In this document: one piece after another, positions 3,416 through 30,458 of the stretch
How positions within the stretch are numbered: the stretch's first letter is position 1
How the letters are laid out: the number at the start of each line of letters is the position of its first letter
Source of the DNA: a virus
Taxonomy: Duplodnaviria > Caudoviricetes
Reading direction: 5' to 3' (one strand)
DNA length: 60,257 bases
Virus record (IMG/VR): IMGVR_UViG_3300027759_000010
Location: 1-60,257 of that record
Position numbers and translations under genes: made by a program
The notes under the pieces: model-generated
Database searches by the model: none
The model's input: the letters and a program-made list of their open reading frames with translations, nothing else
What the model was told of the DNA's origin: nothing

Positions 3416-3434
3416 AATGAAGTCAATATACACC

Positions 3435-3464: not shown

Positions 3465-3483
3465 AAATATTCCCGAAGAAATA

Positions 3484-4401: not shown

Positions 4402-4413
4402 GATTTATGCTCC

Positions 4414-5019: not shown

Positions 5020-5036
5020 TTAAGACTCCTATAAAT

Positions 5037-6514: not shown

Positions 6515-6526
6515 GTATTAGCTCCT

Positions 6527-7121: not shown

Positions 7122-7123
7122 CG

Positions 7124-9619: not shown

Positions 9620-9628
9620 TTTTAATCC

Positions 9629-11149: not shown

Positions 11150-11732
11150 TTATATCTTCAGGTACGTCTACCATACGTGTTTCTTCTGTTGGGCCTAGGA
11201 GCGTATCCAGATCATCTAGAGGTGTGGCATCCATCACTTCTGCGTTCATGAGCCGCTTGATACGTTCCTTGATGGAGTCTTCCAGCCCCTTGCTTGTGGT
11301 GTGATGCACAGTAATCTCACTGCGCTCAGTAAAGAGGCCGATGTCTGAATGTTTGCCCAACAACTCAAGCGCTTTGATCTCAATCTTCGGATCGCCGCAG
11401 TCAGTCATCTTGACCAACTTGTTCGTAATAAATGTGCGGGCTTGTTGTATATCCGTAAATGCTTGGAAGTCAAATTGCTTGACAAGTACAGACGCAGCCT
11501 TAGCCTCTGCCGCACTAAGTACGTGCTTAGGCACATTGGGTTTATTGGTGCCGTTAATTAGCTCTGCTGCTTTATGCAGAGAGTTGTCATCGTAATCAAT
11601 GCCGGGGCCCAGCACATCAATAAGGTCTGCGGTATTTGCAGCGATGGCTATGCCGTCCTTGTGAGTCTTGGGCTGCTCATCGGACATATCGAACGGTAAC
11701 TTGTGTTCCGTTGTTGGCTGAATTTCAATCAT
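11133..11732 (-). CDS. Putative terminase small subunit
   Basis: Overlaps the TerL start; IKALELLGKH..GLFTER motif; likely start MIEIQ at 11732. Confidence 0.6.
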   Translation of the reverse strand: MIEIQPTTEHKLPFDMSDEQPKTHKDGIAIAANTADLIDVLGPGIDYDDNSLHKAAELINGTNKPNVPKHVLSAAEAKAASVLVKQFDFQAFTDIQQARTFITNKLVKMTDCGDPKIEIKALELLGKHSDIGLFTERSEITVHHTTSKGLEDSIKERIKRLMNAEVMDATPLDDLDTLLGPTEETRMVDVPEDINEPNS

Positions 11733-12034
11733 AGGCACCGTAGGTGAACGGGAGTGGTGCAAATGTAACACTACTTTTAAATTTTTGCAAAAATTTTTTT
11801 GGGCTAGCCTTTTATTTTTGCACCGGGGGGTGTTTGGGAGCGGAGAAAAAGAGGATAAAAAGCGGAAAACTGAAAGGGGGTGGGGGGATTTTTAATTTAG
11901 CTCATCGGGAGAGCTACACAGTGTGTATGTGACTACGGGACTCCTTTGCTCAAAATCTGGGTGATGGGGTATTGCTGGTGGCAAAACCTAACTTTTGTTA
12001 TGGGATGCCCCTATTTATCTTTTTATTTATTACT

Positions 12035-12062
12035 TTGCATTTTGTGGTGCGATTTGTATAAT
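12035..12062 (+). promoter_or_regulatory. Sigma70-like promoter for the first early gene
   Basis: TTGCAT-N16-TATAAT. Confidence 0.55.
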
Positions 12063-12139
12063 AGATAGCATGCACCGCACAATGTGATGCATCCCTGATA
12101 GCAGGGTTTTATTAGATGATATTAGAAAAGGTATTTATC

Positions 12140-12655
12140 ATGACTACAGTTATTCAGACCCAAGCAATTGACACCGGTATCCTTGATGCAGCAGAGATTG
12201 CATTAGTTGACGGGGTTAGCAAAACCGGTGACTTAATTCAAGGTTACGCCGATGCACTGTGCGCGGTATTCAATCGGCGCGACACTGAGGGTCATACCCT
12301 CGAAGCATGGTACAACCTAGTCGGTGCGGAGCGTAAGGGTATCAAGGCGCGCCGCGCTTCATTTGTTCAACGCATGATTGCACGCGGACATGTTAAGGCT
12401 GGGACTACTGACAAACCCAGTGCAACAGTTGACACCTACTGGCAACGGGTCAAGGAAGCTTCGGGCTATGTGCCAAAAGGCAGGGTTTCCGGTGGCACTG
12501 ACGTAGATGCTAAGACCCTTGCAGAATTGAAGACCATGATTAATCGGATTCTGAAGTCCGAGGAAGACGGCAAAGACTGTAACGCTTCGATGTTCAAAGG
12601 CAACCTGATGGAGGTCTTCGAGGGCTTGGGCGGTGAAGTGGATACGCTCGGATAA
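12140..12655 (+). CDS. Hypothetical early protein
   Basis: 171 aa from MTTVIQ, AAAGG RBS, downstream of a promoter. Confidence 0.75.
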   Translation: MTTVIQTQAIDTGILDAAEIALVDGVSKTGDLIQGYADALCAVFNRRDTEGHTLEAWYNLVGAERKGIKARRASFVQRMIARGHVKAGTTDKPSATVDTYWQRVKEASGYVPKGRVSGGTDVDAKTLAELKTMINRILKSEEDGKDCNASMFKGNLMEVFEGLGGEVDTLG

Positions 12656-12665
12656 GTAAATCACG

Positions 12666-12689
12666 GAACCTAGGGGAAACCCTAGGTTC
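12666..12689 (+). other. Perfect 10-bp hairpin with GAAA tetraloop
   Basis: GAACCTAGGG-GAAA-CCCTAGGTTC, directly abutting a CTAAC dyad; no U tract. Confidence 0.6.
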
Positions 12690-12717
12690 TAACAAATGTT
12701 AGAAACTGGAGAAAATT

Positions 12718-12867
12718 ATGGTCATTCGTTTAAGTGGTACATTTTGCCGGTTCTTGTTATCGAAGCATATGATGTGGGCTTGGAAATTCTGGTGGATTGG
12801 AACCGCCCGAGTCGGCACTGATTGCACCAACTACGTTCGCATAGGTTGGATCACCCCAAAATTCTAA
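12718..12867 (+). CDS. Small Trp-rich hypothetical protein (49 aa)
   Basis: GGAGA RBS; MVIRLSGTFCRFLLSKHMMWAWKFWWIG...; manual translation. Confidence 0.55.
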   Translation: MVIRLSGTFCRFLLSKHMMWAWKFWWIGTARVGTDCTNYVRIGWITPKF

Positions 12868-12885
12868 CCTAATGTTATAAAACTT

Positions 12886-12909
12886 AGCCCGCCTAGTGCG
12901 GGCTTTTTT
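12886..12909 (+). terminator. Rho-independent terminator
   Basis: AGCCCGC-CTAGT-GCGGGCT-TTTTT. Confidence 0.8.
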
Positions 12910-12931
12910 GCGTCTGTACCTAACAAATGTT

Positions 12932-13073
12932 AGCGCACCACAATGTTATTTTTAGTCTGGATTTTGTCTTGCACCAGTTCTCTGTGCGGGGGTAGGACAG
13001 CGTACCACAATGTTATTTGTTCTATTGATGGGACAATTTAGGCTTGCACCAGTTCTCTGTGCGGGGGTAGGAC
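12932..13073. repeat. Imperfect tandem duplication with a perfect 31-bp core
   Basis: CTTGCACCAGTTCTCTGTGCGGGGGTAGGAC at 12968-12998 and 13043-13073; AGCGYACCACAATGTTATTT at 12932 and 12999. Confidence 0.85.
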
Positions 13074-13165
13074 TAAGCAAATCTAACAAATGTTATGTTT
13101 CGGTGTGGCAAAATTTGGCTTTGTTACGTTACAAAAATGGAAACGTAACGCACTTTCTTCAATGA

Positions 13166-13178
13166 AATCAACAACTTA
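13166..13178 (+). promoter_or_regulatory. IHF-binding consensus site
   Basis: AATCAACAACTTA matches WATCAANNNNTTR. Confidence 0.65.
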
Positions 13179-13340
13179 GCCCCTAATGTTACATGTTACG
13201 TTTTTTTGCGAAGTGGCATGGCGGTCAGAAAGGCGGCGCAAGTCAGCAAGTGCAATCTGTACCATGATATAATCTAGGAAAGCCTTATATATAATTCTTA
13301 AAAAAACTTAACATTGTAACTTTACCCGTTTTTTCTCTCG

Positions 13341-13353
13341 TAACCTGTTGATT
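13341..13353 (-). promoter_or_regulatory. IHF-binding consensus site (inverted)
   Basis: Minus strand AATCAACAGGTTA matches WATCAANNNNTTR; overlaps the inverted repeat 13160-13173/13346-13359. Confidence 0.65.
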
Positions 13354-13483
13354 TCATTGGACTTTATAATGTTATATGTCAAAACTTTTTCTCGTAACAT
13401 TCTGCAACATTGTCACAAATAAACGTAACACCCCCACACCAGCAGAACGTAACAATACTGCGCCGATGCACACCCCCAAATAC

Positions 13484-13512
13484 TTGACATATCCATAACT
13501 TTGTGGTATAAT
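13484..13512 (+). promoter_or_regulatory. Consensus sigma70 early promoter with extended -10
   Basis: TTGACA-N17-TATAAT with TG at -15/-14. Confidence 0.9.
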
Positions 13513-13595
13513 ATAAAGATGGGTTGGGGTTATTGTGTTCGTCGTTAGGTTTGCCCAGCCCAGTAAAGCCTAACATTTGTTAGAAAGGTTAGAAG

Positions 13596-13760
13596 ATGAA
13601 ATCAGTATGGATTCTCACGCAGAACTTGGCGTTCATTTGCGGAGTGTACTCAAGCGAAGCAAAAGCCGAGCGCGTCATGCGTGAGTTAGAAGCCCGAGAC
13701 CTAGAGGGTGGGACACCTCTGGCTAACAGCTACTACGTGACAGAAGAAGACGTTGAATAA
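13596..13760 (+). CDS. Small hypothetical early protein (54 aa)
   Basis: MKSVWILTQNLAFICGVYSSEAKAE...; bounded by dyads at both ends, with the stop codon inside the second. Confidence 0.7.
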   Translation: MKSVWILTQNLAFICGVYSSEAKAERVMRELEARDLEGGTPLANSYYVTEEDVE

Positions 13761-13782
13761 CATTTGTTAGAAAGGTTAGATC

Positions 13783-14007
13783 ATGAATGATTGGAAGCTA
13801 TGCCGTGACTGCGGCGATGAGTTCTCTGTAGAGCGCTGGAGCTTAGGCTATCGGCACTGCCTATTCTGCGGTGAGGAAGCTGCCCGTACCGAGCGCATGA
13901 GTTGGTGCGTTATCCAAGAGTACACCAAGGGTAATTACCAATTTGTTACAACTGCTAGCGCACATACAACGCTCAAACAGACTAATCAAAAAGAATTGAG
14001 GGGCTGA
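13783..14007 (+). CDS. Small zinc-finger protein
   Basis: CRDC...CLFC. Confidence 0.75.
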   Translation: MNDWKLCRDCGDEFSVERWSLGYRHCLFCGEEAARTERMSWCVIQEYTKGNYQFVTTASAHTTLKQTNQKELRG

Positions 14008-14010
14008 CCC

Positions 14011-14184
14011 ATGACCGAAGACCCCAAAGATACAGCCGAGAGGATGGTTAGCCTGTACAAGCACAGCAAGTACACGCCCGAGGAAAGGGCGACTGACCAT
14101 GCGTTTGCCTACGACAGCCACGAAGCAGGGCGCAAGTTCTGGATTGCGGTTCTAAACCATATCAACAAAGGAGCAAACAAATGA
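14011..14184 (+). CDS. Small hypothetical protein (57 aa)
   Basis: GAGGGG RBS, manual translation MTEDPKDTAERMV...; ATGA overlap with the next gene. Confidence 0.6.
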   Translation: MTEDPKDTAERMVSLYKHSKYTPEERATDHAFAYDSHEAGRKFWIAVLNHINKGANK

Positions 14185-14501
14185 GCGACACAAAAAAGAT
14201 AGCCGCTTTTCTGCTGTACATGGCAGAGCACGAGCGCCCGACAGTTAATCGAATGGCAGGTTTAACTGTATTTGCCGACTTGGTATCGCTTGCGAAGCAT
14301 GAGTTTGAAACCATGAGCGTGGAGGAGCGGGACAAGTTTAAGAAGCCCGAGTACACCATGAACGAAGCCGAGATATATATCGAGGAGAGATTGAAGCACA
14401 TGCGAGAAGCGTTTGACAAAGCATTGGAGGAAGCCGAGTACCAAGCAGATTATTACGAGCGGAGATTCAATGCAGTCCGAGAAGCCGTAGAAAAAGCCTA
14501 A
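14181..14501 (+). CDS. Hypothetical protein
   Basis: 106 aa, AAGGAG RBS, stop codon within a dyad. Confidence 0.7.
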   Translation: MSDTKKIAAFLLYMAEHERPTVNRMAGLTVFADLVSLAKHEFETMSVEERDKFKKPEYTMNEAEIYIEERLKHMREAFDKALEEAEYQADYYERRFNAVREAVEKA

Positions 14502-14526
14502 CAATTGTTAGAAAAGGAGCAAACAA

Positions 14527-14700
14527 ATGAGGCCAAGACACGTAAAGGTGGACAAGCTGACCAAGCGAGTTAGCCAGACCGACTACTTACAAATGTTAGA
14601 TGAGGCCATGAAGTACGCAAGGATTCAGGAGTCCAAGCCCATGTTGCAGGTGAGGGAGTTGCCCATACACACTAAGGAGGGAGTACAAGATGCTGACTAG
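14527..14700 (+). CDS. Small hypothetical protein (57 aa)
   Basis: AAAGGAGCAAACAAATG start, same RBS block as 14181; manual translation. Confidence 0.6.
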   Translation: MRPRHVKVDKLTKRVSQTDYLQMLDEAMKYARIQESKPMLQVRELPIHTKEGVQDAD

Positions 14701-14779
14701 AACCGAGAAGATCACCCGCGTGGTGTTCCTGCTTTGTCTTATTGTCGTAGCCCTAGACCTGTTTTATTGGAGGCCATGA
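14690..14779 (+). CDS. Small membrane peptide (29 aa)
   Basis: MLTRTEKITRVVFLLCLIVVALDLFYWRP; GGAG RBS. Confidence 0.55.
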   Translation: MLTRTEKITRVVFLLCLIVVALDLFYWRP

Positions 14780-14931
14780 TGAGGTTGTTACAAGACGAGT
14801 GCCGAGGACTGAGCAGCTGGTTTGCAAGCCGACTGGATGCTAGGGAAGTGGTACGAAATAATCTTAGGGAGGAACTAACAGATGTTAGGGAGTGGGAACT
14901 TAACAACGATCAACCGAGCAGGGAGGGCTAG
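14776..14931 (+). CDS. Small hypothetical protein
   Basis: GGAGG RBS, MMRLLQDECRGLSSWFASRLDAR. Confidence 0.6.
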   Translation: MMRLLQDECRGLSSWFASRLDAREVVRNNLREELTDVREWELNNDQPSREG

Positions 14932-15120
14932 ATGAACAACTATTACCTTTGCCGAGTACCACACACGAAGGTGGTTGTCGTGCTTACGGACATGGACTAC
15001 AGATACCAGCGTTTGCATGAGAGCCAACTGCGCGAGCCTAACCCTGAATATAACTTTGTGCTGTTGGCGCAGGGGTCGGAGAAACTTATGAAGCAGTACA
15101 GAAACTTAATGGGGGTCTAA
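14932..15120 (+). CDS. Small hypothetical protein
   Basis: 62 aa, GGAGG RBS, stop codon in a dyad. Confidence 0.65.
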   Translation: MNNYYLCRVPHTKVVVVLTDMDYRYQRLHESQLREPNPEYNFVLLAQGSEKLMKQYRNLMGV

Positions 15121-15123
15121 CAA

Positions 15124-15285
15124 ATGTTAGCTAGATACTACGTGACAGGGTGGAGTGGTGGGTTCGGCAGATGGATTGCCGAGAGCCTCGAAGCTAAGAG
15201 TATGACGGTGGCGAAGCAGAGGTTCACTACCAAGTACCCCACACTCAAGACTATTAAAGCATACAAATTGAGAGGAGAAGCATAG
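15124..15285 (+). CDS. Small hypothetical protein (53 aa)
   Basis: ATG lies inside a dyad; MLARYYVTGWSGGFGRWIAESLEAKS... Confidence 0.6.
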   Translation: MLARYYVTGWSGGFGRWIAESLEAKSMTVAKQRFTTKYPTLKTIKAYKLRGEA

Positions 15286-15294
15286 GCGAGAAAC

Positions 15295-15323
15295 TTGACA
15301 TACCCATTAAATTGTGGTATAAT
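15295..15323 (+). promoter_or_regulatory. Consensus sigma70 early promoter with extended -10
   Basis: TTGACA-N17-TATAAT; near-copy of the 13484 promoter. Confidence 0.9.
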
Positions 15324-15433
15324 TAAGGTTGCTATGGATAATTGTGTCTGTAGTAGTTAGAGTAGGTGGAAGCGTTTAGAGCGCAACCCCCTAACATTTG
15401 TTAGAAATATTAGCGTAATCAGAAGGATTGAAA

Positions 15434-16504
15434 ATGGCAGAAATCAATTTCGGTAAGAGCATCACGCTCAAGCAAGCGGCTAACCTTATCCGCACAAACC
15501 CAACGACTCGGTTCTTACTGCAAGGTGAGCCCGGCATTGGGAAGTCTTCCCTACTAGAGAATATCGCTGACTCCCTCGGCTATGAGCATGCGTACATCGA
15601 TGTGCCGAACATGGACTTGGGCGATATTGCGATGCCTGTGATCGACCACGACACAAAGACTACCCGCTACTACCCTAACGCTAGGTTCAAGATACACGAG
15701 AAGAAGCCGCTGGTCATCATGCTCGATGAGTTCACTAAGGGTGCTGACCCCGTGAAGAACATGCTTCACCCCATGCTAGAGAAGGCTAACCCGAGGCTTG
15801 GTGACATCCCCCTCACCACTTCACCGCCAACCATTGTGTTTCTCACAGGTAATCTAACTACCGATGGAGTGGGTGATTCCCTCAAAGCACATAGCCGTAA
15901 CCGCTTAGTCCCAGTAACGATTGCTAAACCCGATGCCGAGCAGTGGATTGAGTGGGCGATCGGTAAAGGTATCGAAGCCGAGGTGATTGCATGGGTGAGC
16001 CGTTTCCCGCAAGTACTCGCAAGCTACACCGATGGGGCGCAGGGTGACAACCCGTACATCTACAACCCACGCAAGACTCAGCATGCGTTCGTATCACCAC
16101 GCTCATTGGAGACGGCGAGCAACATTGTCCGCACTCGCAAAGAGAACGACCCTGATTCAGTGATTGCCGCCTTGACTGGTGCGATCGGTGAATCCGGTGC
16201 GCGTGATATGCAAGCGTACATTGAGTTCTCAGATCAGCTACCCACATGGGAGGCCACGATCAAAGAGCCAAAGACTACGACAGTACCGACAAGTTCGGGA
16301 GCCTGCGCTATTGTGGTGTTCGGTGCTATCTCTCGCATTACGAAGGAAACCATTAGCCCGTTCATGGAGTACTTGGAGAGGTTCGATGCCGAGTGGCAAG
16401 CCGTGTTCGCTATCAACATTGCCAAGAACTCCACTAAGCAGAGCATTGCGTTCTCAAGCAGTGCGTTCAAGGACTGGGTTGTTAAGAACCAAGACCTGCT
16501 CTGA
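15434..16504 (+). CDS. MoxR-like AAA+ ATPase
   Basis: GEPGIGKS Walker A, IMLDEF Walker B, TGN sensor, NR finger, SPRS sensor II. Confidence 0.85.
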   Translation: MAEINFGKSITLKQAANLIRTNPTTRFLLQGEPGIGKSSLLENIADSLGYEHAYIDVPNMDLGDIAMPVIDHDTKTTRYYPNARFKIHEKKPLVIMLDEFTKGADPVKNMLHPMLEKANPRLGDIPLTTSPPTIVFLTGNLTTDGVGDSLKAHSRNRLVPVTIAKPDAEQWIEWAIGKGIEAEVIAWVSRFPQVLASYTDGAQGDNPYIYNPRKTQHAFVSPRSLETASNIVRTRKENDPDSVIAALTGAIGESGARDMQAYIEFSDQLPTWEATIKEPKTTTVPTSSGACAIVVFGAISRITKETISPFMEYLERFDAEWQAVFAINIAKNSTKQSIAFSSSAFKDWVVKNQDLL

Positions 16505-16516
16505 GATACCTAACAA

Positions 16517-16738
16517 ATGTTAGGAATGAATGGTATGTCAGCAAGTGACCTCAAGAAACTACCCCGCTACTACATGCAGTGGGTGACTGTGCCCTACCCC
16601 GAGGAGACTGGGGTTGCTCGGTTACAGGTAGAGGGGCTAATCATACGAGACGCCGAGACGGATGGCTTTCCGATTGTGTTTGAGCATACTGATAAGCGAG
16701 TAGTAGCGAAGATGTTAACAATTTTAAACGAAGGGTAA
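16517..16738 (+). CDS. Small hypothetical protein
   Basis: About 70 aa between two dyads; exact start uncertain. Confidence 0.6.
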   Translation: MLGMNGMSASDLKKLPRYYMQWVTVPYPEETGVARLQVEGLIIRDAETDGFPIVFEHTDKRVVAKMLTILNEG

Positions 16739-16741
16739 CAA

Positions 16742-17953
16742 ATGTTAGAAGAAAGAAAAGTTCAGAAGGCGAAGATTACTTTGATGCGTGACCCGAAGTT
16801 TGCTCTTTGGTCGGGCATTTTGATGGTTGGGCGTACTAGCGTAGTGGACAACATTCCGACTGCATGCACCAACGGGCGTGACGAGATGTACGGGCGTAAG
16901 TTTGTAGCCGGACTCAAAGAGCCCGAGTTGAATTTCGTGGTGTTGCATGAGAACTTGCACAAGGCATTCCGTCACCTGACCACATGGAAGAAGCTGCATG
17001 ATGAAGATCACCAGCTCGCTAATTCTGCTTGTGACTACGTTATTAACCTCAAGCTCAAAGACCTCGATCCGAGCGAGCGACTCATTGCGATGCCACGTTG
17101 GGCAGATGGTGAACTCAAGGGCAAACCGATGGGGTTGGTTGACGAGAAGTATCGCGGCCTCAATGCCAAACAAGTGTTCGACCTACTCAAAGAGAAGCAG
17201 GAGGATAACGGCAGCTCGGGCGGTGGTGGCGATGTCCCCGGTGGGTTCGATGAGCACGACTGGGCTGGGGCAAAGGAGATGACCGAGGAGGAGAAGAAGG
17301 TTCTCGAGCGCGAGATAGATCAGGCTATTCGCCAAGGGGTAATGGCGCACCAAAAGATCGCGGGAACTGGTGGTGGTGATCTAGATCGGGACTTGCTTGA
17401 CTTGCTTGAGCCGAAGGTCGACTGGCGTGAGATGTTGCGTGAGTTCGTGAAGTCTACGTGTAGCGCAAAAGATACATCGTCATGGCGTAGGGTGAATCGT
17501 AGGTTCTTGTCTACGGGTATCTACATGCCGAGCCTGATCGGTGAGAAGGTAGGGCACTTGGTTATTGCTGTGGATACGTCAGGTTCTGTTGGGCAGGAAG
17601 AGTTGTCGGGCTTCCTAACAGAAGTTAGGGGTATCGCAGAAGAAGTTAAGCCGAGCCAAGTGGACTTGATCTATTGGGATAGCCGAGTAGCCGCACACGA
17701 AGAGTACACCGAGAACGATGTGTCCAACATCATTAACTCGACCAAGCCTAAAGGCGGTGGTGGTACGTCACCCTCATGCGTGTCTAGGTACTTGAAAGAC
17801 AAGCACATTGCGCCCGAGTGCGTCATCGTTCTCACCGATGGGTACGTGGGTGAAGACTGGGGTAGCGACTGGACTGCGCCTGTACTGTGGGCGATCGTAG
17901 GAGGAAACGATTGTGTTGCAGGCAATGGCAAAACAGTTCATGTCAAGGACTAA
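16742..17953 (+). CDS. Metallopeptidase plus vWA domain protein (DUF2201-like)
   Basis: HENLH zincin motif; MIDAS DTSGS, GGGT, LTDGY. Confidence 0.85.
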   Translation: MLEERKVQKAKITLMRDPKFALWSGILMVGRTSVVDNIPTACTNGRDEMYGRKFVAGLKEPELNFVVLHENLHKAFRHLTTWKKLHDEDHQLANSACDYVINLKLKDLDPSERLIAMPRWADGELKGKPMGLVDEKYRGLNAKQVFDLLKEKQEDNGSSGGGGDVPGGFDEHDWAGAKEMTEEEKKVLEREIDQAIRQGVMAHQKIAGTGGGDLDRDLLDLLEPKVDWREMLREFVKSTCSAKDTSSWRRVNRRFLSTGIYMPSLIGEKVGHLVIAVDTSGSVGQEELSGFLTEVRGIAEEVKPSQVDLIYWDSRVAAHEEYTENDVSNIINSTKPKGGGGTSPSCVSRYLKDKHIAPECVIVLTDGYVGEDWGSDWTAPVLWAIVGGNDCVAGNGKTVHVKD

Positions 17954-17987
17954 GTGGTGGTTCATAACAAATGTTAGGAGAGCAAAA

Positions 17988-18218
17988 ATGATTGTAGTGA
18001 CTATGGGGTATTCAGATTACGTGATGAGCGCCAAGGATGCGTTCACACTCAGTGAGATTCTTAGCCGAGCCGAGAGGTACGAGAACAAGTACCGAGGTAG
18101 TGGTAATGAGAATACGTTCCACGTGTATGAGAACGACAAACCGTTCCCCATGCACATCATTGCCGACGACATATATCGTATGGCTAAGTTAGCCGGTAAA
18201 CCAACCAAGGAGAATTGA
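17988..18218 (+). CDS. Hypothetical protein
   Basis: AGGAG RBS after a dyad; MIVVTMGYSDYVM. Confidence 0.7.
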   Translation: MIVVTMGYSDYVMSAKDAFTLSEILSRAERYENKYRGSGNENTFHVYENDKPFPMHIIADDIYRMAKLAGKPTKEN

Positions 18219-18219
18219 A

Positions 18220-18402
18220 ATGAAATTAGAAGATGTACAGAACGCGCTGTTCGCAGCGTATGACTTACGAAATGCCATGACATCGGCAGACAAGCGCCGA
18301 CCTACAGCCAACGAGAATTTTGGTACGAGCCTTGCCGAAGTGATTGAGTTTTTGGTAGGGCTTGAAGAAGAGTTTTTATCATCAGAAGGAGAAACATTAT
18401 GA
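18220..18402 (+). CDS. Hypothetical protein
   Basis: 60 aa, AAGGAG RBS. Confidence 0.65.
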   Translation: MKLEDVQNALFAAYDLRNAMTSADKRRPTANENFGTSLAEVIEFLVGLEEEFLSSEGETL

Positions 18403-19247
18403 GTATTAGCGCATCAGCAGTTTTGGTCGAGTTGAACCTTAGCGTTTGGCCTGCCGCAAAGATCGACCGTGAACTTACGAACCAAGTCAACACCAATGCG
18501 TCTGCCCACAAGGACGCATCACAGACCAAGAAGAATCTGTTTGCGGGTACAAGCCTACGAGCAGACATCGAGAAGTTCGCCGCAAGGGTACGTCTCTATC
18601 ACAACCAACACACGTTGCCGTGGGCTGACAAGGGTGAGCGCATGTTGCCGACCAAGTTATTCATGGACTACAAGCAGACTATGAATGGATACGAGCGTAC
18701 GTTCAACATGCTATGCGATAACTTCTTTGATGAGTACGAGACTCTGGTGCAGGATGCCAAGGTGAACCTTGCCGGTATGTACAAAGCAGAAGACTATCCT
18801 GATCTAACAAATGTTAAGACTAAGTTCAGCTTTAGACGTAGCGTGAAGCCTTTGCCCGAGGCTGGTGACTTTCGCTTGGACATTCCCGCGCATGACTTAG
18901 AGGAGATGCGAGCCGCGTACGAAGGTCAGTATTCGGACAAGCTGGCCGAAGCGATGCGAGCACCGTGGGAGCGCCTGCATAAAGTTCTCTTAGGTATGTC
19001 TGAGAAGCTGGAAAGCTCAGGCGATGAGAAGAAGCGTTTCCACGACTCATTGATCTCCAACCCACTGGAGTTGTGTGAGTTGCTGACGAAACTGAACGTT
19101 ACTAACGACCCGAAGCTGGAGGATGCACGTAGGCAAGTAGAACTAGCCATGCTCGGGGCCGACATTGAAGAAGTCAAGGATAGCCCGCTGGTTCGTGAGA
19201 ATCTGAAGTCCAAGGTTGACGCCATCCTTGGTAAGTTCGAATGGTAA
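18399..19247 (+). CDS. Conserved helical protein (DUF3150-like)
   Basis: 282 aa, HTLPW...R.LP...YP...F.F pattern; family call tentative. Confidence 0.65.
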   Translation: MSISASAVLVELNLSVWPAAKIDRELTNQVNTNASAHKDASQTKKNLFAGTSLRADIEKFAARVRLYHNQHTLPWADKGERMLPTKLFMDYKQTMNGYERTFNMLCDNFFDEYETLVQDAKVNLAGMYKAEDYPDLTNVKTKFSFRRSVKPLPEAGDFRLDIPAHDLEEMRAAYEGQYSDKLAEAMRAPWERLHKVLLGMSEKLESSGDEKKRFHDSLISNPLELCELLTKLNVTNDPKLEDARRQVELAMLGADIEEVKDSPLVRENLKSKVDAILGKFEW

Positions 19248-19272
19248 TAACATTTGTTAGGAGTAGGTGAGT

Positions 19273-20151
19273 ATGAGTATGAATACATTGAATTTGAGCA
19301 ACGTGGTGCTCAGCGAAGACTTAGAGGGGCAGCGTAGCAAGATCGGAGGCGTTCACAAGTTGATCGACCCTGTGGTTAACCGACTGGCTACGTTGAATCC
19401 GCTTTGGATATTCGAGGCTAGGGCTAGAGGTAACGTCCCCAGTGGGTACATGGTGGATAACTTTGTTGTCAAGTTAGACGGTGAGCCTTTGGGTTGCATT
19501 ACAAACAGCTACATGGGTAGCCGGGGCTATGTGATCTCTATCAGCAACGACCGTATTGGTAAGAGCCGATCACGTAGCGATTCGTATCGCACTGCTGATG
19601 CAGACAAAGCTGTACTCATGGCGAAGAAGATGTTTGGCAAGATGAATCCGACTGAGCGTATCAGCAAGGCTAATGCTGCGGCAGAACGTGTAGTGACTCG
19701 GGGAGCTTGGAACAAAGAGCGAGAGCGTCAGACCCATACCAGCACAGTGCATGGTGCGTTGCTAGCGTGGGCTGAGAGCAAGGGCATGCCAATGTTCTTG
19801 GAGTTCATCGACAAGGAAGCGCTACTGGACACTAGGCAAAAGATTACTACTAGCATGGAAAAGCTAGAGGTGATTAACACCGAGATGAAAACTATCGAGC
19901 GTGTTCAGAAGGACTTCAACGACAGTAAAACTGCGCTAGTGGTCAAAGACTCGGGTAAGTATCTAGTCAGGATAGGTGACAAGGTAGACCTATACGATGA
20001 TAATACGCTCCCCGTGGATATGCGTATGAAGATGGGTATGCTCAAGTTGGTGGAAGACGAGCAGTACATCACTGACGTAGGCTGCAAGGTGACGAGTGAG
20101 ATATTTGTTTTGTTGGTCGACAAGGAGGCCGTGCATGAAAGCCGTACTTGA
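19273..20151 (+). CDS. Hypothetical protein
   Basis: About 292-aa ORF after a dyad and AGGAG RBS. Confidence 0.75.
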   Translation: MSMNTLNLSNVVLSEDLEGQRSKIGGVHKLIDPVVNRLATLNPLWIFEARARGNVPSGYMVDNFVVKLDGEPLGCITNSYMGSRGYVISISNDRIGKSRSRSDSYRTADADKAVLMAKKMFGKMNPTERISKANAAAERVVTRGAWNKERERQTHTSTVHGALLAWAESKGMPMFLEFIDKEALLDTRQKITTSMEKLEVINTEMKTIERVQKDFNDSKTALVVKDSGKYLVRIGDKVDLYDDNTLPVDMRMKMGMLKLVEDEQYITDVGCKVTSEIFVLLVDKEAVHESRT

Positions 20152-20320
20152 GTTCACGTATCCACAAGATGAGACCAAGCTCAAGCATGCGTTGAAGGGT
20201 GAGGACTACTACTTGGCGTTGATTGAAATTGACCGAGCGCTTGTGAATGCTCGACAGTTTGGAGGAGCCGACATGCCCGACAGGATTAGATATATTTTAG
20301 AGGGGGTAATAGATGTATGA
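20135..20320 (+). CDS. Small hypothetical protein
   Basis: AAGGAGG RBS, MKAVLEFTYPQD. Confidence 0.7.
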   Translation: MKAVLEFTYPQDETKLKHALKGEDYYLALIEIDRALVNARQFGGADMPDRIRYILEGVIDV

Positions 20321-20481
20321 AATGCCCCCTATGCCAAGCCCCAACGGAGATTAAAGACTCACGACTGACTAGCAAAGGCTACGTAAGACGTAGGAAATGT
20401 TTTAACGACCACGTATTCAAGACTGTGGAAACACTGCTGACCGAACCTAAAAAGAAGGGGAGTAAAAATGACAGGGATTGA
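20317..20481 (+). CDS. NrdR-like zinc-ribbon protein (54 aa)
   Basis: Manual translation MKCPLCQAPTEIKDSR...VRRRKCFNDHVFKTVE, resembling the NrdR N-terminal Zn ribbon. Confidence 0.7.
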   Translation: MKCPLCQAPTEIKDSRLTSKGYVRRRKCFNDHVFKTVETLLTEPKKKGSKNDRD

Positions 20482-20671
20482 GAACCTAAAACTGGAACAA
20501 CAAAAGAAAGGGCGGGGGCTTGGTAAGAAACCCGCACTGTTCTGTACGAGCTTGCGTCTACCAAAGGATGTGATGGATTACTTCAACACAAACTTCGCGT
20601 ATACAAAGCAAGCCAAGATGAGAGAAATTCTTACCGAGTATGTTAGCAACCAAACAGGAGATAAAGCATGA
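20468..20671 (+). CDS. BrnA-like ribbon-helix-helix protein
   Basis: GRG..KKP....SLRLPKDVMDYF......QAKMREIL..Y pattern. Confidence 0.65.
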   Translation: MTGIENLKLEQQKKGRGLGKKPALFCTSLRLPKDVMDYFNTNFAYTKQAKMREILTEYVSNQTGDKA

Positions 20672-21201
20672 TTAAACCAGCACAAAACAAAGCGGCGCAA
20701 ATCCGTGAGTACATTGCGGCTAACCCCAAAGCTAAACCAGCAGAAATAGGCAAGGCAGTGGGCTCTAGCAAACAGTACGTATACATAGTGCAGAGTAAAG
20801 AAAAGGCCAAGATAGCGAAGAAGGCCAAGGCAGCGAAGAAGACTAAGCCCGCACACAAACCTAATTGGAAACGGTTGGGTTTCTTTAGTTCAGACACTCC
20901 AGTGGTCGAGGATACAGTTACCGATACGTACAAAGACCGTATGATGGAGTTGGCATACGCAGCGACAACGGGTAGGGCGAAGATACGTATGGAAGGCGAC
21001 CGAGGCGACCCGGTTAACAACCCTGCTCATTACACAGTAGGGGGAATCGAGACGATTGACTTCATCGAAGCTAAGAAGTTGAACTACCGCCTTGGTAACG
21101 TGGTGAAGTACCTGACACGTGCCGACCACAAGGGCAACAAGATCGAAGACCTACGTAAAGCGCAGTGGTACTTGGAGCGAGAGATCGAGAGCCTGTCCTA
21201 A
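20668..21201 (+). CDS. DUF3310 domain protein with Lys-rich N-terminal extension
   Basis: DPVNNPAHYT.GGIETIDFI...GNVVKYLTRADHKG..EDLRKAQWYL. Confidence 0.8.
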   Translation: MIKPAQNKAAQIREYIAANPKAKPAEIGKAVGSSKQYVYIVQSKEKAKIAKKAKAAKKTKPAHKPNWKRLGFFSSDTPVVEDTVTDTYKDRMMELAYAATTGRAKIRMEGDRGDPVNNPAHYTVGGIETIDFIEAKKLNYRLGNVVKYLTRADHKGNKIEDLRKAQWYLEREIESLS

Positions 21202-21228
21202 CTTTTGTTAGGAGTTAGGGTAATCACT

Positions 21229-21251
21229 AGCCACCTTCGGGTGGCTTTTTT
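21229..21251 (+). terminator. Rho-independent terminator ending the early region
   Basis: AGCCACC-TTCG-GGTGGCT-TTTTT. Confidence 0.85.
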
Positions 21252-21263
21252 GCGTCTGTAGTA

Positions 21264-21291
21264 TTGACAAAGTAAAAACTTCGGATAGAAT
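21264..21291 (+). promoter_or_regulatory. Promoter for replication genes
   Basis: TTGACA-N16-TAGAAT. Confidence 0.7.
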
Positions 21292-21320
21292 TAAGACTCG
21301 AAAACAAATTGGAGTGTTAG

Positions 21321-21626
21321 ATGGCGACCACGCCCGAGGCAAAAGTTAAAGCCAAGATCAAGGCTATCTTAAAAGCCCACAACATCTACTACGCCATGCC
21401 TATCGGCACTGGCTACGGCAACAGCGGTGTGCCCGACTTCCTGTGTTGCATCAACGGTCACTTTGTGGCTATCGAAGCCAAGGCTGGCAAGGGTAAAGTT
21501 ACTGCGCTACAACAAAAAAACCTACGCGAGATACAAGATGCAGGGGGCATAACCCTAGTTCTTAACGAGGAGAGTTTTAATCTGCGACCATCCCCCCTTG
21601 AGTTTGTATTGAAAGAGCTCGCATGA
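21321..21626 (+). CDS. VRR-NUC domain nuclease (possible resolvase)
   Basis: PE.KVK...GVPD...IEAKA...TALQ. Confidence 0.85.
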   Translation: MATTPEAKVKAKIKAILKAHNIYYAMPIGTGYGNSGVPDFLCCINGHFVAIEAKAGKGKVTALQQKNLREIQDAGGITLVLNEESFNLRPSPLEFVLKELA

Positions 21627-23440
21627 AATTTTTAACGATTGACTTTGAGACCTACTACTCACGTGAGTTCAGCCTAACAAAAGTTACCACTGAGGAATAC
21701 ATTCGCAGTGAGCAGTTTGAGGCTATCGGTGTAGCTGTACAGGTGGACGATGCAAAGCCCGAGTGGTTCAGCGGCGATGCTGAATCCATGCACCAGTTCC
21801 TTGCTCAATTTGATTGGGCTAACAGCTTAGCTATTGCGCACAACGCCCCGTTCGATGGTGCAATTTTGAAGTGGGTCTACGGACTCAGCCCTAAAGGTTG
21901 GCTTGATACTTTGTCTATGGGCAGAGCGCTACACGGTACGGAGGTAGGTGGTAGCTTGAAGGTGCTAGCTAATTACTACGGCCTTGGCGAGAAGGGTACG
22001 GAGGTTGAGAACGCCTTGGGTCTGCACCGTGCCGACTTCAGCCCCGAGCAGTTGGCTAGGTACGGCGATTACTGCAAGAACGATGTGGCGCTTACGTGGG
22101 AATTGTTTGGGCAGATGAGCAAAGGTTTCCCCAAGGTTGAGTTGCGCCTGATCGACTTGACTGTGCGTATGTTCACCGAGCCGGTACTGCGCTTAGATAC
22201 CGTTTTGTTAGACAGCTACTTAGAAGAGGTTGTGAAAAAGAAGCGCTTTGCACTGGCTAACTACGACCGCGATGATTTGATGAGCAACCCAAAGTTTGCC
22301 GAGTTGCTTGTAAAGCTTGGTGTCGAGCCGCCTATGAAGGTCAGCCCCGCGACGGGCAAACAAACCTTTGCATTCTCCAAGACAGACGAAGCGTTCAAGG
22401 CATTGCTTGAACATGAAAACCCCGAGGTACAGGCTTTAGTAGCAGCGAGATTGGGCACTAAATCTACAATAGAAGAGACAAGAACTGAGAGGTTCATTGG
22501 TATTGCCAAGCGCGGTGCGTTACCTGTACCCCTACGCTACTATGCCGCGCACACTGGACGTTGGGGCGGGGATGACAAGCTGAACTTGCAGAACTTACCA
22601 CGGGGTTCTGTGCTTAAGAGTTGCATCGAAGCGCCGGATGGGTATCTGATGATTGACTCAGACTCATCACAAATTGAAGCCCGTACGCTGGCATGGCTTG
22701 CAGAACAGAACGACTTGGTAGATGCGTTTGATAGGGGTGAAGATGTTTATAAAATTATGGCGTCTGCTATCTATAACAAAGATGTGTCAGCGATTACAAA
22801 AGACGAGAGGTTTGTTGGCAAGACTACGATTCTTGGTTGCGGCTACGGCATGGGGGCAAAGAAGTTCCAAGCGCAACTCAAGAACTTTGGTGTGGCGATT
22901 GATTTGGACGAAGCGACACGCATTATTGACACGTACCGCGCAACGTATCCGAAGATTGTTGAGCTATGGAAGTCTGCGGCGTCAGCCCTAAAGTCCATAC
23001 TACAGAAACAGCACACCACGCTAGGCCGAGGCGATATTTTAAAAGTCGAGGGCGTCAAGGGTATTTTGTTACCCAACACCTTGTACTTGCGTTACCCCAA
23101 CTTGCGTAAGCTCCAAGACGATGACGGCGAGATCGAACTTGTATACGACACCAAGAAGGGCAAAGCAATTATTCCAACACGCATCTACGGCGGCAAGGTG
23201 ATTGAGAACGTGTGTCAAGCCTTGGCTCGGATTGTGATCGGTGAGCAGATGCTATTGGTTGCGAAGAAGTACCGAGTGGTTATGACTGTGCATGACGCTA
23301 TCGCTTGCATTGTGCCGTCTGAACAGGTTGAAAACGCTATGGAGTACGTTGAGATGTGCATGCGTACACGACCAGATTGGGGCATGGATTTACCACTGAA
23401 CTGCGAGGCAGGGTACGGGAGAAATTATGGAGCATGCTAA
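21623..23440 (+). CDS. polA: DNA polymerase family A with 3'-5' exonuclease
   Basis: Exonuclease DFET, HNAPFD, YCKND; polymerase motif A DSSQIEAR, B RFVGKTTILGCGYG, C VHD. Confidence 0.95.
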   Translation: MKFLTIDFETYYSREFSLTKVTTEEYIRSEQFEAIGVAVQVDDAKPEWFSGDAESMHQFLAQFDWANSLAIAHNAPFDGAILKWVYGLSPKGWLDTLSMGRALHGTEVGGSLKVLANYYGLGEKGTEVENALGLHRADFSPEQLARYGDYCKNDVALTWELFGQMSKGFPKVELRLIDLTVRMFTEPVLRLDTVLLDSYLEEVVKKKRFALANYDRDDLMSNPKFAELLVKLGVEPPMKVSPATGKQTFAFSKTDEAFKALLEHENPEVQALVAARLGTKSTIEETRTERFIGIAKRGALPVPLRYYAAHTGRWGGDDKLNLQNLPRGSVLKSCIEAPDGYLMIDSDSSQIEARTLAWLAEQNDLVDAFDRGEDVYKIMASAIYNKDVSAITKDERFVGKTTILGCGYGMGAKKFQAQLKNFGVAIDLDEATRIIDTYRATYPKIVELWKSAASALKSILQKQHTTLGRGDILKVEGVKGILLPNTLYLRYPNLRKLQDDDGEIELVYDTKKGKAIIPTRIYGGKVIENVCQALARIVIGEQMLLVAKKYRVVMTVHDAIACIVPSEQVENAMEYVEMCMRTRPDWGMDLPLNCEAGYGRNYGAC

Positions 23441-30456: not shown

Positions 30457-30458
30457 CT

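Follow-up and report, generated by a model that had tools for sequence, protein, structure and literature searches.

The window, that is, the whole stretch of 60,257 bases that was analysed, is a complete 60-kb phage genome, that of a freshwater, podovirus-like and apparently virulent phage, and its early plus-strand operons carry an array of short dyads. The exact form, CTAAC-N4-GTTAG (CTAACNNNNGTTAG), occurs ten times, always within 12689–21211, where 100 dinucleotide-preserving shuffles of the window lead one to expect 0.07 copies (standard deviation 0.26, maximum 1); the same exact scan returned no match to the pattern read backwards. When one mismatch is allowed there are 19 copies, every one inside 11988–21687 and none in the remainder of the window. 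The earlier note had reported about 20 copies in the early region, with starts confined to 11988–21674, and this positional enrichment is borne out. A further 19 matches with two mismatches are dispersed across the whole window and are at chance level, since the resulting total of 38 compares with 26.1 expected and was reached by 5 of the 100 shuffles. The centres of the 19 copies are AAAT (nine), ATTT (four), TTTT (two) and AATT, AAAA, AGAT and AGAA (one each), so both orientations are present on one strand, as had also been claimed. Position 6 is A in 17 of the 19 and position 9 is T in 16, and the true unit is thus a 14-bp palindrome, CTAACA-WW-TGTTAG. The string TAACA-N2-TGTTA is found 14 times in the window, and half-sites standing alone are not enriched there.

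The first early unit has its own promoter and its own terminator. The promoter is sigma-70-like (TTTGCA-17-TATAAT, plus strand, 12034–12062), and a copy with one mismatch (CTAACTTTTGTTAT, 11988–12001) lies 33 bp upstream of its -35 element. The first early gene, here called E1 (plus strand, 12140–12655), encodes 171 residues from the ATG at 12140, in a reading frame that opens at 12116, and an exact copy at 12689–12702 separates its stop codon from the ribosome-binding site (RBS) of a 49-residue ORF. A degenerate copy, CTAAC-N5-GTTAT (12864–12878), stands outside the 19 and provides the stop codon at 12867 with its TAA. The unit is closed by a hairpin with a T run that resembles an intrinsic terminator (plus strand, 12886–12904); an exact copy follows immediately (12920–12933), and one with a mismatch lies within a non-coding gap (13083–13096). 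Two consensus sigma-70 promoters, both TTGACA-17-TATAAT, TG-extended and on the plus strand, are located at 13484–13512 and 15295–15323. Each has an exact copy in its 5' leader, at 13570–13583 (58 nt past the -10 element and 12 nt before the ATG at 13596) and at 15391–15404 (68 nt past the -10 element, ahead of an ATPase gene). Between these two leader sites there are copies at 13757–13770 (one mismatch), whose TAA is the stop at 13760 and is followed by an RBS and the ATG at 13783; at 14498–14511 (CTAACAATTGTTAG, a perfect 14-bp palindrome), whose TAA is the stop at 14501; at 14586–14599 (one mismatch) and 14875–14888 (exact), both inside ORFs; and at 15117–15130 (exact), which supplies both the stop at 15120 and the start at 15124. 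The exact copy at 16510–16523 marks the junction of the ATPase gene with a 73-residue ORF and offers a possible start at 16517. The next copy (16735–16748, one mismatch) combines the stop at 16738 with the start of a DUF2201 gene at 16742, an ATG that is retained as the start in relatives, and a further exact copy (17615–17628) is placed inside that gene. The copies at 17964–17977, 18804–18817 and 19247–19260, each with one mismatch, precede an RBS and ATG, lie inside the ORF at 18399–19247, and fall at the junction of the 18399 and 19267 genes, respectively. The last junction copy (21198–21211, exact) forms the stop at 21201 just before a terminator-like hairpin (plus strand, 21229–21246) that ends the array-bearing early operon, and the sole copy past this terminator (21674–21687, one mismatch) is inside the DNA polymerase gene. 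The earlier note had held that the TAA of the dyad serves as a stop codon, that its ATG can start genes and that copies are also kept within coding sequences. The first of these applies to the five stops given above for copies among the 19, the stop at 12867 belonging to the degenerate copy; ORFs are indeed opened at 15124, 16517 and 16742, and the copies at 14586, 14875, 17615, 18804 and 21674 are the five intragenic ones.

None of the copies overlaps a predicted sigma-70 promoter; they occupy 5' leaders and stop/RBS/start junctions. The leader sites of one relative, L204, are found 44 and 45 nt past the -10 element. After exclusion of sites spanned by a long ORF, 190 of 248 sites in the family are left, and of these, 52 have a TAA that terminates an ORF of 40 codons or more and 63 have an ATG that opens such an ORF. 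The copies keep to the early operons, and the view that the array is module-wide is upheld.

The repeats are also kept in position among relatives. These were fetched without reference to the motif, as 78 loci with homology to the 18399 protein, and 75 of them hold at least three copies of a TAACA dyad, which answers the question of conservation raised in the earlier note. The top dyad at this threshold is TAACA-N2-TGTTA in 64 of the 78 loci and TAACA-N-TGTTA in 11, although such locus counts are not phylogenetically independent, L283/L284 and L291/L292 being near-duplicates. In two complete relatives, G001 and G002, all copies (11 of 11 and 8 of 8) lie in the early region. Between lineages the palindrome changes in concert: close relatives, with core proteins 83–96% identical, bear an altered palindrome at the same junctions, either GTTACA-N-TGTAAC or a 13-bp CTAACA-N-TGTTAG. 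G001 and G002 are such a pair, the former with CTAACA-NN-TGTTAG and the latter with GTTACA-N-TGTAAC and no CTAAC site, and at four orthologous junctions each has its own palindrome. Similarly, L286 and L284, whose nucleotides are 87% identical along an alignment of 11.2 kb, have 22 copies of the 14-bp form and 16 of the 13-bp form, respectively. In a second phage group, for which a DNA polymerase is all that was found in common with the window, this architecture recurs with six or more further palindromes; the identical 14-mer array also stands at early gene junctions there, and across the two groups there are at least eight different palindromes.

The symmetry of the repeat is of the kind seen in DNA sites. 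Across the window and 55 oriented relatives, which together give 251 unique site contexts, conservation is limited to the 14 bp and the flanks carry no -35 or -10 signal; A6 (94%) and T9 (83%) are conserved around a centre of AA, TT or AT, and the most frequent variants, C1 to A (12%) and G14 to T (8%), mirror each other. Tandem copies with a period of 21–22 bp occur in L134 and L178. Symmetric variants, both centre orientations and weak RNA hairpins together favour a double-stranded DNA site for a dimeric protein over an RNA hairpin, in agreement with the earlier note. The repeats might instead act in mRNA, as a 5-bp hairpin beside each RBS that signals processing, stability or translational control and is recognised by a hairpin-specific protein or an RNase. 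This is very unlikely, even though every copy is on the transcribed side of the early operons, most lie at about -30 to +20 from a start codon in three registers, and 9 of the 19 sites form the hairpin in their minimum-energy fold. The hairpins are barely stable (-2.4 kcal/mol in the consensus, and from -0.7 to -1.2 in the sister motifs GTTACATTGTAAC, TTTACAATTGTAAA and ATTACACAATGTAAC), a loop of 2 nt would be too short for A6 to pair with T9, the variants are mirror-symmetric rather than wobble-compatible, and within a lineage there are no compensatory stem changes. Three copies, at 11988 (upstream of the promoter), 12920 and 13083 (past the terminator), fall outside the predicted transcripts. 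The A-rich bias of the centre on the coding strand (AAAT 111 vs ATTT 53, AAAA 24 vs TTTT 5) would suit an RNA element, but it corresponds to the general AT skew of the strand, and about 30% of the centres are reversed, with AAAT as well as ATTT found at functional and equally good junctions. Recombination offers another explanation, in which the repeats are linkers for shuffling early genes as cassettes between co-infecting relatives, as had been suggested for small early genes. The exact placement at gene boundaries, the highly variable gene content between sites among relatives (12–15.4 kb part) and the gene-by-gene variation in identity between G001 and G002 (43–96%) would be in keeping with it. 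However, 436 BLASTN alignment ends from 50 related loci gave 8.1 breakpoints per site-bearing junction against 10.4 per site-less junction, the five intragenic sites attract 0, 3, 0, 0 and 7, and runs of up to nine variable genes are free of sites. The genome has no match to a tyrosine or serine recombinase, an integrase or a resolvase, and the concerted replacement of the motif at junctions of conserved genes would be left unexplained. A role as recombination boundary is therefore scarcely credible.

The reading preferred here is that the repeats are double-stranded DNA operators, CTAACA-WW-TGTTAG, for a putative symmetric-dimer protein that shuts off early transcription by roadblock, with E1 as the likeliest binder; for this reading as a whole the balance of belief and doubt is about even. 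None of the RNA runs searched contains sequence of the window. Host RNA polymerase would initiate at the consensus sigma-70 promoters and meet operators about 45–70 nt downstream, in the leaders, and then at nearly every stop/RBS/start junction. As the binder accumulates it would fill these sites and block the elongating polymerase, and it may in addition occlude DNA near sites of translation initiation. Joint silencing of the early operons would follow, on the same principle as with stoperators. Most probably the phage itself encodes the binder. On co-variation alone E1 is the best candidate, a new one that was not named in the earlier note. By BLAST, the E1 proteins of L204 and L205 do not match each other, nor do those of L286 and L284, in contrast to neighbouring genes at about 90% identity or more. 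Among 41 E1 proteins from 37 loci, those of the window type accompany the 14-bp palindrome in 21 of 25 loci and the 13-bp form in none (the other four have mixed or few copies), those of the L204 type accompany the 14-bp form in four of four, and those of a WxR(V/I)R cluster go with the 13-bp form in six of eight and with a 13-bp GTTACA form in one. The second group repeats this pattern: L127 and L173 have different palindromes, and the products of their first early genes stand apart with 32% identity, against 80–89% for most other shared proteins. There are exceptions, in that L009 combines an R-type E1 with seven 14-bp sites, 13- and 14-bp sites are mixed beside a single E1 in L038/L272 and in L098, and window-type and L204-type E1 proteins are about 15% identical yet go with the same 14-bp motif. 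Because genes at the left end of the early region are hypervariable as a rule, the divergence of E1 may be coincidental, and E1 could alternatively be an arms-race protein. A DNA-binding fold was not recognised in its all-helical AlphaFold2 model (mean pLDDT 77), for which Foldseek gave nothing at E ≤ 0.001 and the best VIA Z score, 6.3, does not rise above the background for helical proteins; E1 matches no family in Pfam or PHROG, and the pI is 5.6–7.9 in five of the six family members computed (5.7 in the window).

Other binders have to be set against E1. Among those proposed in the earlier note, a 67-residue protein encoded near the far end of the early operon (plus strand, 20468–20671), ribbon-helix-helix (RHH) by sequence pattern only, is a doubtful second candidate; being last to accumulate, it would serve as a timer that represses the entire array by delayed negative feedback. 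It has an Arc-like strand (TSLRLP) followed by two helices, a basic GRG/KKP tail (pI 9.6) and homologues in 114 related loci, and its DNA-facing strand differs between L204 (VHVNVRIP, with CTAACA) and L205 (PLVNLRLP, with GTTACA), proteins 72% identical among neighbours at 94–96%. The protein is universal, but tail and strand (KKPALYCTSLRLP) are identical in L286 and L284 despite their 14-bp and 13-bp sites. The strand LFNTSLRLS is likewise found in four 14-bp and two 13-bp loci and LYCTSLRLP in two and six, and the contact residues of window-type (C/N-S-R) and L204-type (H-N-R) proteins both accompany one motif. It has no Pfam family, a PDB profile search gave only 2q2k at E = 0.7, and no homologue was found in the second-group sequence searched. 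Two further suggestions are disfavoured: the XRE/HTH_23 protein (30438–30707) is 87% identical between two phages with different palindromes, and the winged-helix protein (27040) has no homologue in G001 and G002, both complete. The last suggestion, a host DNA-binding protein (for instance a nucleoid protein or a global regulator) which is co-opted or titrated by the phage, is unlikely as well; other palindromes would then reflect infection of hosts in which the orthologous factor has another specificity. The second group has the identical 14-mer array, and its first early proteins show no homology to those of the first (hhalign probability 0.3), a combination which a shared host factor would explain no less well than E1. 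Tail-region proteins of G001 and G002 are 45% and 25% identical, beside 15.8 kb without a match, and the difference in their palindromes could accordingly stem from a host switch. The 12-bp core TAACAAATGTTA, in the partial descriptions available, is also the core of the PrfA box in Listeria and of one Aca11 operator, which indicates that cellular helix-turn-helix (HTH) dimers can read such sequences. Against a host factor, the spacer length differs between phages whose DNA is 87% identical along 11 kb and its change coincides with replacement of the phage gene E1, and the eight or more palindromes in two groups are closer to immunity-type diversification of phages than to host regulons. In species-representative bacterial genomes, the exact 14-mer gave single scattered matches and no multi-site locus among the matches listed (at least 120), which argues weakly in the same direction.

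Several known systems resemble the array that is here proposed to be read by E1. The promoter-early stem-loops (PeSL) of T4-type phages and the boundary sequences of lambdoid phages are short repeats that border small early genes and are tied to promoters or recombination; the window repeats likewise border small early genes in a hypervariable region, but their motif has no flanking promoter signal and breakpoints are not enriched at them. The 434-type Cro/CI operators of lambdoid phages are 14-bp palindromes with conserved outer half-sites and an AT-rich centre, a geometry suited to an HTH dimer, and in these features the window site is alike. They overlap one or few promoters, however, whereas the window has about 20 sites downstream of promoters, at junctions, a difference that also applies to the PrfA box and the Aca11 inverted repeat. 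The latter two, as far as their descriptions are available, differ further from the window site in its outermost C/G bases, and a Crp/Fnr-type or Aca11-type protein was not identified in the phage. In the temperate Streptomyces phage phiC31, the conserved inverted repeats (CIRs), palindromes of 17 bp, are repeated in the early region near early transcription signals and are bound by repressor c, a member of PF25746. The window palindrome is also repeated many times in the early region, near transcription signals, with one phage protein as its putative reader, but it has 14 bp instead of 17; PF25746 had no match in the window or in 17 E1 members, and a protein-atlas hint to it scored 0.81, a level which for that tool is often chance. 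The stoperators of cluster A mycobacteriophages, bound by repressors of the L5 gp71 type, had been invoked in the earlier note. In the sections available of two sources, they are sites of 13–14 bp in at least 20 copies, placed in short intergenic spaces of transcription units with many overlapping stop or start codons, proposed to act on elongating RNA polymerase, and diverged together with their repressors in related phages (PMC9283540; PMC6550527). The same sections describe them as asymmetric, bound by a monomer through an HTH and a stoperator domain, oriented with the direction of transcription, and spread over both genome arms of temperate phages for immunity (PMC9283540; PMC6550527). The window array, by contrast, is palindromic with both centre orientations, is confined to early operons and belongs to a genome with no integrase or resolvase match; no homologue of a stoperator-type repressor was recognised in it, and as the array lacks the asymmetry that defines stoperators and shows no tie between orientation and transcription direction, membership of the stoperator family is rejected. 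The likeness extends, on these sections, to about 20 copies of one short site, short junctions, overlap with stop and start codons, a proposed polymerase block and diverged motifs in related phages, and since the sites are within transcription units, at short junctions and off the promoters, the functional analogy with stoperators is a reasonable one.

The dyad CTAAC-N4-GTTAG recurs in the window far above expectation and, as the earlier note had claimed, is confined to the early region: CTAACNNNNGTTAG occurs in 10 exact copies against 0.07 expected, and the 19 copies found at no more than one mismatch all lie within 11988-21687. Matches with two mismatches are dispersed over the window at chance level, and lone half-sites (CTAACA or TGTTAG not in a full site) show no higher density in the early region than in the rest of the window. 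Since 17 of the 19 copies have A at position 6 and 16 have T at position 9, the true element is CTAACA-WW-TGTTAG, longer than first described; the 14498 copy is palindromic over all 14 bp. The overlaps with stop and start codons had been described correctly in their details, except that the stop at 12867 sits in a degenerate copy whose spacer has 5 nt. Most sites, 14 of 19 in the window, lie outside ORFs, and 190 of 248 sites in the family have no long ORF spanning them.

The 60,257 bases have direct terminal repeats and represent one complete virus record. Structural and packaging genes (portal, large terminase, major head protein, tail fibre and a 2096-aa virion protein) occupy the - strand at 1-11771 and 33788-60257; the early/replication module (about 11.9-33.6 kb, + strand) encodes small early genes, a MoxR-like ATPase, a DUF2201 metallopeptidase/VWA protein, DUF3310, DNA polymerase A, helicase and primase. 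The 2096-aa protein (33788-40078, -) opens the late module, and its C-terminal 740 residues match 'DarB-like antirestriction' giant virion proteins (phrog_10089, E = 4.8e-59). A homing-endonuclease-like ORF (48623-49348, +; phrog_314, E = 3.7e-10) runs in the opposite direction to the late module around it. Because neither a tyrosine integrase (PF00589) nor a serine recombinase/resolvase was matched in the window genome, and tRNA genes likewise were not found in it, the phage is probably virulent. Of the large proteins searched, none was recognisable as a phage RNA polymerase. The large terminase is 49-57% identical to those of the nearest cultured phages, which are DSL-LC04, 023Pt_psg01, pelagiphages HTVC027P/023P and Planktothrix/Synechococcus phages. 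The early region is present in DNA runs from freshwater and drinking-water metagenomes, and no RNA run was listed as a match for 12000-21900.

Consensus sigma-70 promoters are predicted at 13484-13512 and 15295-15323 (both TTGACA-17-TATAAT with TG) and at 21264-21291, a weaker one at 12034-12062, and terminator-like hairpins at 12886-12904 and 21229-21246. As these predicted elements partition the early region, the array appears to occupy three units: a first-gene unit at 12.0-12.9 kb, a unit from the 13484 promoter, and a unit from the 15295 promoter that stops at the terminator just past the last junction copy. The downstream replication operon holds only one copy, with one mismatch. None of the copies in the window overlaps a predicted promoter; the leading copy of a unit lies 58 or 68 nt 3' of the -10 and immediately 5' of the Shine-Dalgarno (SD) sequence, and the same arrangement is seen in the distant relative L204, with dyads 44 and 45 nt past the -10. 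The motif was also considered as a promoter and rejected: no -35/-10 occurs at a fixed distance on either side, and positions outside 1-14 carry less than 0.3 bit.

Several other features accompany these units. A 9-bp perfect stem without a T run, AACCTAGGG-GAAA-CCCTAGGTT (12655-12688), is placed after the first early gene's stop codon and ahead of the dyad at 12689; it may stabilise the RNA or act as a pause element. The roughly 650 bp between the first terminator and the next promoter (12905-13560) contain no convincing gene; they hold a direct repeat of 67-75 bp (12932-12998 and 12999-13073), seven CGTAAC/GTTACG words at 13123-13453, an AT-rich patch at about 13280-13320 and several half-palindromes such as AACATTGTAAC, and may form a replication origin or a second regulatory region. 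The MoxR-like AAA ATPase (phrog_1297, 15428-16504) is followed by the DUF2201 putative metallopeptidase and VWA-like protein (16742-17953), which PHROGs labels 'HNH endonuclease', a label without Pfam support; the pair is kept in every relative examined, and a dyad copy precedes each gene. A small CxxC...CxxC zinc-ribbon protein is conserved family-wide (window 13783-14007; L204 7976-8224; L206 7732-7941; L207 7378-7596). It resembles TraR/DksA-type fingers but has no Pfam match; its start codon is the palindrome's own ATG in three relatives, and the first codons of the L205 version contain the replacement palindrome. A 54-aa ORF (20317-20481) matches only the NrdR N-terminal zinc ribbon (PF22811, E = 2.6e-7), without the ATP-cone.

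An exact 14-mer scan of IMG/VR gave at least 118 stretches; 56 of those listed are relatives of the window (tBLASTN E <= 1e-8), with 253 copies in 429 kb, and one 14.2-kb contig of this motif-selected set carries 22. Since such a set is biased toward the motif, the test was repeated with loci fetched by homology to the 18399 protein alone, which gave at least 470 confirmed IMG/VR stretches; the best 80 were taken and 78 examined, L035 and L094 being omitted as already in the motif-scan set. Among these 78 of the best 80 from at least 470 stretches, TAACA-N2-TGTTA is the commonest dyad, with at least three copies, in 64, the 13-bp form TAACA-N-TGTTA in 11 and CTAAG-N4-CTTAG in one, and two have no dyad reaching three copies. 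No dyad array was found in 34.3 kb of sequence from the cultured relative DSL-LC04 or in 39.4 kb from 023Pt_psg01, and a megablast of the early region against the phage collection gave no match.

The most informative result of the analysis is that the palindrome switches between lineages. Site forms include CTAACAAATGTTAG, the 13-bp form CTAACA-N-TGTTAG and GTTACATTGTAAC. In two complete related genomes, G001 (L204) and G002 (L205), core early, replication and head proteins are 83-96% identical, whereas G001 has 11 copies of CTAAC-N4-GTTAG and none of GTTAC-N3-GTAAC, and G002 has eight of the latter and none of the former. All copies lie in the early region in both genomes (11/11 and 8/8), and at four orthologous junctions each genome carries its own palindrome. 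In other relatives the site is CTAACA-N-TGTTAG, which reaches 24 copies in 21 kb of L210, and 13- and 14-bp forms occur together in some. Another pair, L286 with 22 copies of 14 bp and L284 with 16 copies of 13 bp, shares 87% DNA identity over 11.2 kb. Such coordinated change at many scattered sites is what co-evolution with a single trans-acting reader would predict. G001 and G002 also differ elsewhere: about 15.8 kb of + strand genes in G001 (L218, 1-15825) have no counterpart in the otherwise collinear G002 (73.6 kb vs 61.7 kb), and the 750-aa and 2271-aa proteins of G001 are only 45% and 25% identical to their G002 matches, which suggests either that their tail/host-recognition modules are distinct or that the contig is chimeric.

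A second phage group was found via a 6.5-kb contig that has no protein similarity to the window and carries five exact copies at early gene junctions; only DNA polymerase was found to be common to this group and the window. Its members, linked through a GP88-family protein, each carry one palindrome at the same type of junction, just 5' of the SD: CTAACAAATGTTAG, TTTACAATTGTAAA, ATTACACAATGTAAC, TCTCACAATGTGAGA, TCTCACTCAGTGAGA, GTGGGACTGTCCCAC or CTGTTAGTCTAACAG. The first early gene is again an outlier, with 32% identity between L127 and L173, where most other shared proteins reach 80-89%. Second-group loci L179-L187 (e.g. L181, 4367-15190) carry 12-18 copies of T(C/T)GTTGA-N3-TCAACG(A/G), many of them in pairs some 58 bp apart that flank a GC-rich GACCCC-N4-GGGGTC hairpin and its T run, which makes a composite palindrome-terminator-palindrome unit.

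Whether the motif acts as DNA or as RNA can be weighed from its symmetry. The logo, built from 251 unique contexts in the window and 55 oriented relatives, has its information confined to the 14 bp apart from a weak C/G extension, and shows no promoter signal on either side. A double-stranded site for a symmetric dimer, preferred over an RNA hairpin in the earlier note, is favoured here as well: both centre orientations occur at equally typical junctions (111 AAAT vs 53 ATTT, about 30% of centres being reversed), figures that are inflated because the AAAT/ATTT form served as the seed for these loci. The centre is AA, TT or AT; the conserved A6/T9 could not pair across a 2-nt loop; the commonest variants are mirror-symmetric (C1 to A in 12%, G14 to T in 8%) and break the pair in ways not compatible with wobble; and within one lineage the base sequence, not just pairing, is kept. 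Predicted RNA hairpins are marginal, at -2.4 kcal/mol or weaker, and those of three sister-lineage motifs reach just -0.7 to -1.2. In favour of a role at the RNA level, the majority of copies lie between about 30 nt before and 20 nt after a start codon, and three registers occur (site-SD-ATG; SD-site with the site's ATG as start; site just within the coding sequence), but a compact genome leaves a constrained 14-bp sequence hardly any other place. As compactness alone could explain this placement, the RNA reading is given a low probability. Also in favour of the double-stranded reading, in L134 (3171-3229) and L178 (3903-3961) three local palindromes stand head to tail directly 5' of an early gene with a period of 21-22 bp, two helical turns. 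The proposal that the sites are recombination boundaries shuffling early genes found no support: homology break-points number 8.1 per junction with a site vs 10.4 without, in a test that is coarse because some HSP ends are locus edges. Break-points gather at gene borders generally, and there are long runs of variable genes without sites.

The binder of the DNA site must be either universal in the phage family or host-derived. A host regulon was set aside, an exact 14-mer scan of genome contigs having given scattered single matches among at least 120 listed. Phage pairs with different palindromes were compared in the search for the binder, and two of the proteins proposed earlier fared badly: the HTH_23/XRE-like protein (30438-30707) keeps 87% identity from G001 to G002 despite their different palindromes, and the wHTH protein (27040) has a homologue in neither. 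The proposed RHH-like protein (67 aa, 20468-20671, +) stands better, being present in 114 loci with an Arc-like strand and a basic tail, and 72% identical between G001 and G002 with strand changes; however, L286 and L284 do not differ in its tail and strand, and single strand types occur with both 13- and 14-bp spacings. Its TSLRLP and predicted helices (H33-42, H47-62) fit the sequence pattern of ribbon-helix-helix repressors (Arc/MetJ/CopG), in which an N-terminal strand and two helices build an intertwined dimer, and the monomer model has two helices. Pfam and Foldseek gave no match, a PDB profile search gave 2q2k weakly (E = 0.7), and the homodimer prediction, with a median score of 0.41 against a mark of 0.42, gave no answer either way. 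No homologue was found in the second-group parts examined.

The best candidate, by co-variation, appears to be E1, the product of the first early gene (12140-12655, +). It is the outlier in both palindrome-switched pairs, with no BLAST match within the L204/L205 pair or the L286/L284 pair, and all its versions align as one family in which W57, W101 and R103 are invariant. Among 41 E1 proteins from 37 loci, which include near-duplicates and are not phylogenetically independent, the 25 loci with WIN-type E1 comprise 21 with the 14-bp form, none with the 13-bp form and four with mixed forms or few copies; L204-type E1 goes with the 14-bp form in 4/4, and a cluster with a conserved helix ending in R (WxR[VI]R) with 13-bp forms in 7/8, the exception being L009. 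Clean independent E1/palindrome swaps number two. The candidacy is limited to co-variation because E1 has no recognisable DNA-binding fold or family (Foldseek against the PDB gave nothing at E <= 0.001), has a near-neutral or acidic pI and is part of a segment that is hypervariable overall. The best Z from VIA wide, 6.3 to chorismate-mutase-like helices and helical hairpins, is uninformative. Two leads from the protein atlas, to DUF3102 (0.82) and Phage_Repressor_c (0.81), found no backing when 17 E1 members and the genome were scanned with Pfam. E1 and the first early protein of the second group show no homology (hhalign probability 0.3).

In the proposed mechanism, host polymerase would transcribe E1 from its separate unit and the binder would then build up, either E1 itself as an immediate-early product or the RHH-like protein, distal in its operon, as delayed feedback. 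Bound to leader and junction operators, it would stop elongation through the two downstream early operons, and the nearly site-free replication operon would escape the block. Alternatively, the sites may serve in activation, genome organisation or entry of leading DNA. Multi-operator arrays within operons are known from temperate actinophages. The 14-mer and CTAAC-N4-GTTAG had no match in the literature searched, and on palindromic intergenic repeats before early phage genes nothing comparable was found among the matches listed. A palindromic array restricted to early operons, with lineage-specific switching, in abundant, apparently lytic freshwater phages and a second group, appears to be undescribed.

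A joint reading, tentative and somewhat improbable as a whole, is that virulent aquatic podophages of at least two groups, sharing little beyond DNA polymerase, use an undescribed design in which a fast-evolving first-early-gene protein of unknown fold reads a lineage-specific palindrome at the translation starts of nearly all early genes and shuts off the whole early programme, with binder/operator pairs diversifying like immunity groups (13- vs 14-bp spacing; CTAACA, GTTACA, TTTACA, TCTCAC and GTGGGAC half-sites). If this were true, lytic phages would have cross-repression or exclusion specificities like temperate phages, and early-gene timing without an own RNA polymerase would have a simple account in very common uncultured freshwater phages, whose marker protein is encoded by at least 470 IMG/VR stretches. 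The stoperator principle of many elongation-blocking operators within operons would then reach beyond temperate actinophages, to symmetric sites and to phages that seem lytic and whose hosts use SD sequences and sigma-70. Closely related phages with switched palindromes (14-bp, 13-bp, GTTACA) are a natural specificity-swap experiment; the system may point to a new DNA-binding fold, and compact orthogonal operator/binder roadblock pairs could be useful synthetic biology parts.

Among known systems, RNA hairpin operators and processing sites (RNase III, Csy4-like, coat-protein operators) have a stable stem with compensatory or wobble changes and a fixed orientation, which the dyad lacks. The integron attC core is GTTRRRY / RYYYAAC. 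Integron cassette arrays combine the IntI tyrosine recombinase with long imperfect attC sites, whereas the window has no PF00589 match and 14-bp sites, and the GTT core is missing from sister-lineage palindromes. The phiC31 CIR system is alike in layout only, a multi-copy inverted repeat in the early region (19 copies in the window); its repressor c carries the Phage_Repressor_c domain (PF25746), which had no match at E <= 1 in a six-frame search of the whole window genome and none in 17 E1 members. The proposed mechanism comes closest to stoperator logic, as set out for cluster A mycobacteriophages (PMC9283540, PMC6550527). Stoperators are asymmetric 13-bp sites bound by a monomer and oriented with transcription, whereas the dyad is a palindrome with mirror-image half-site variants and both centre orientations on the coding strand; they are spread throughout a temperate phage genome with a role in immunity, whereas the dyad occurs only at 11988-21687 in a genome with no integrase/resolvase match; and the halting of elongation by a bound repressor is, in the window phage, a proposal. 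Of the traits that mark the stoperators with which the earlier note had compared the array, asymmetry, orientation dependence and genome-wide spread in a temperate phage fall away; what stands is the layout of many sites in short intergenic gaps within transcription units, 3' of predicted promoters.
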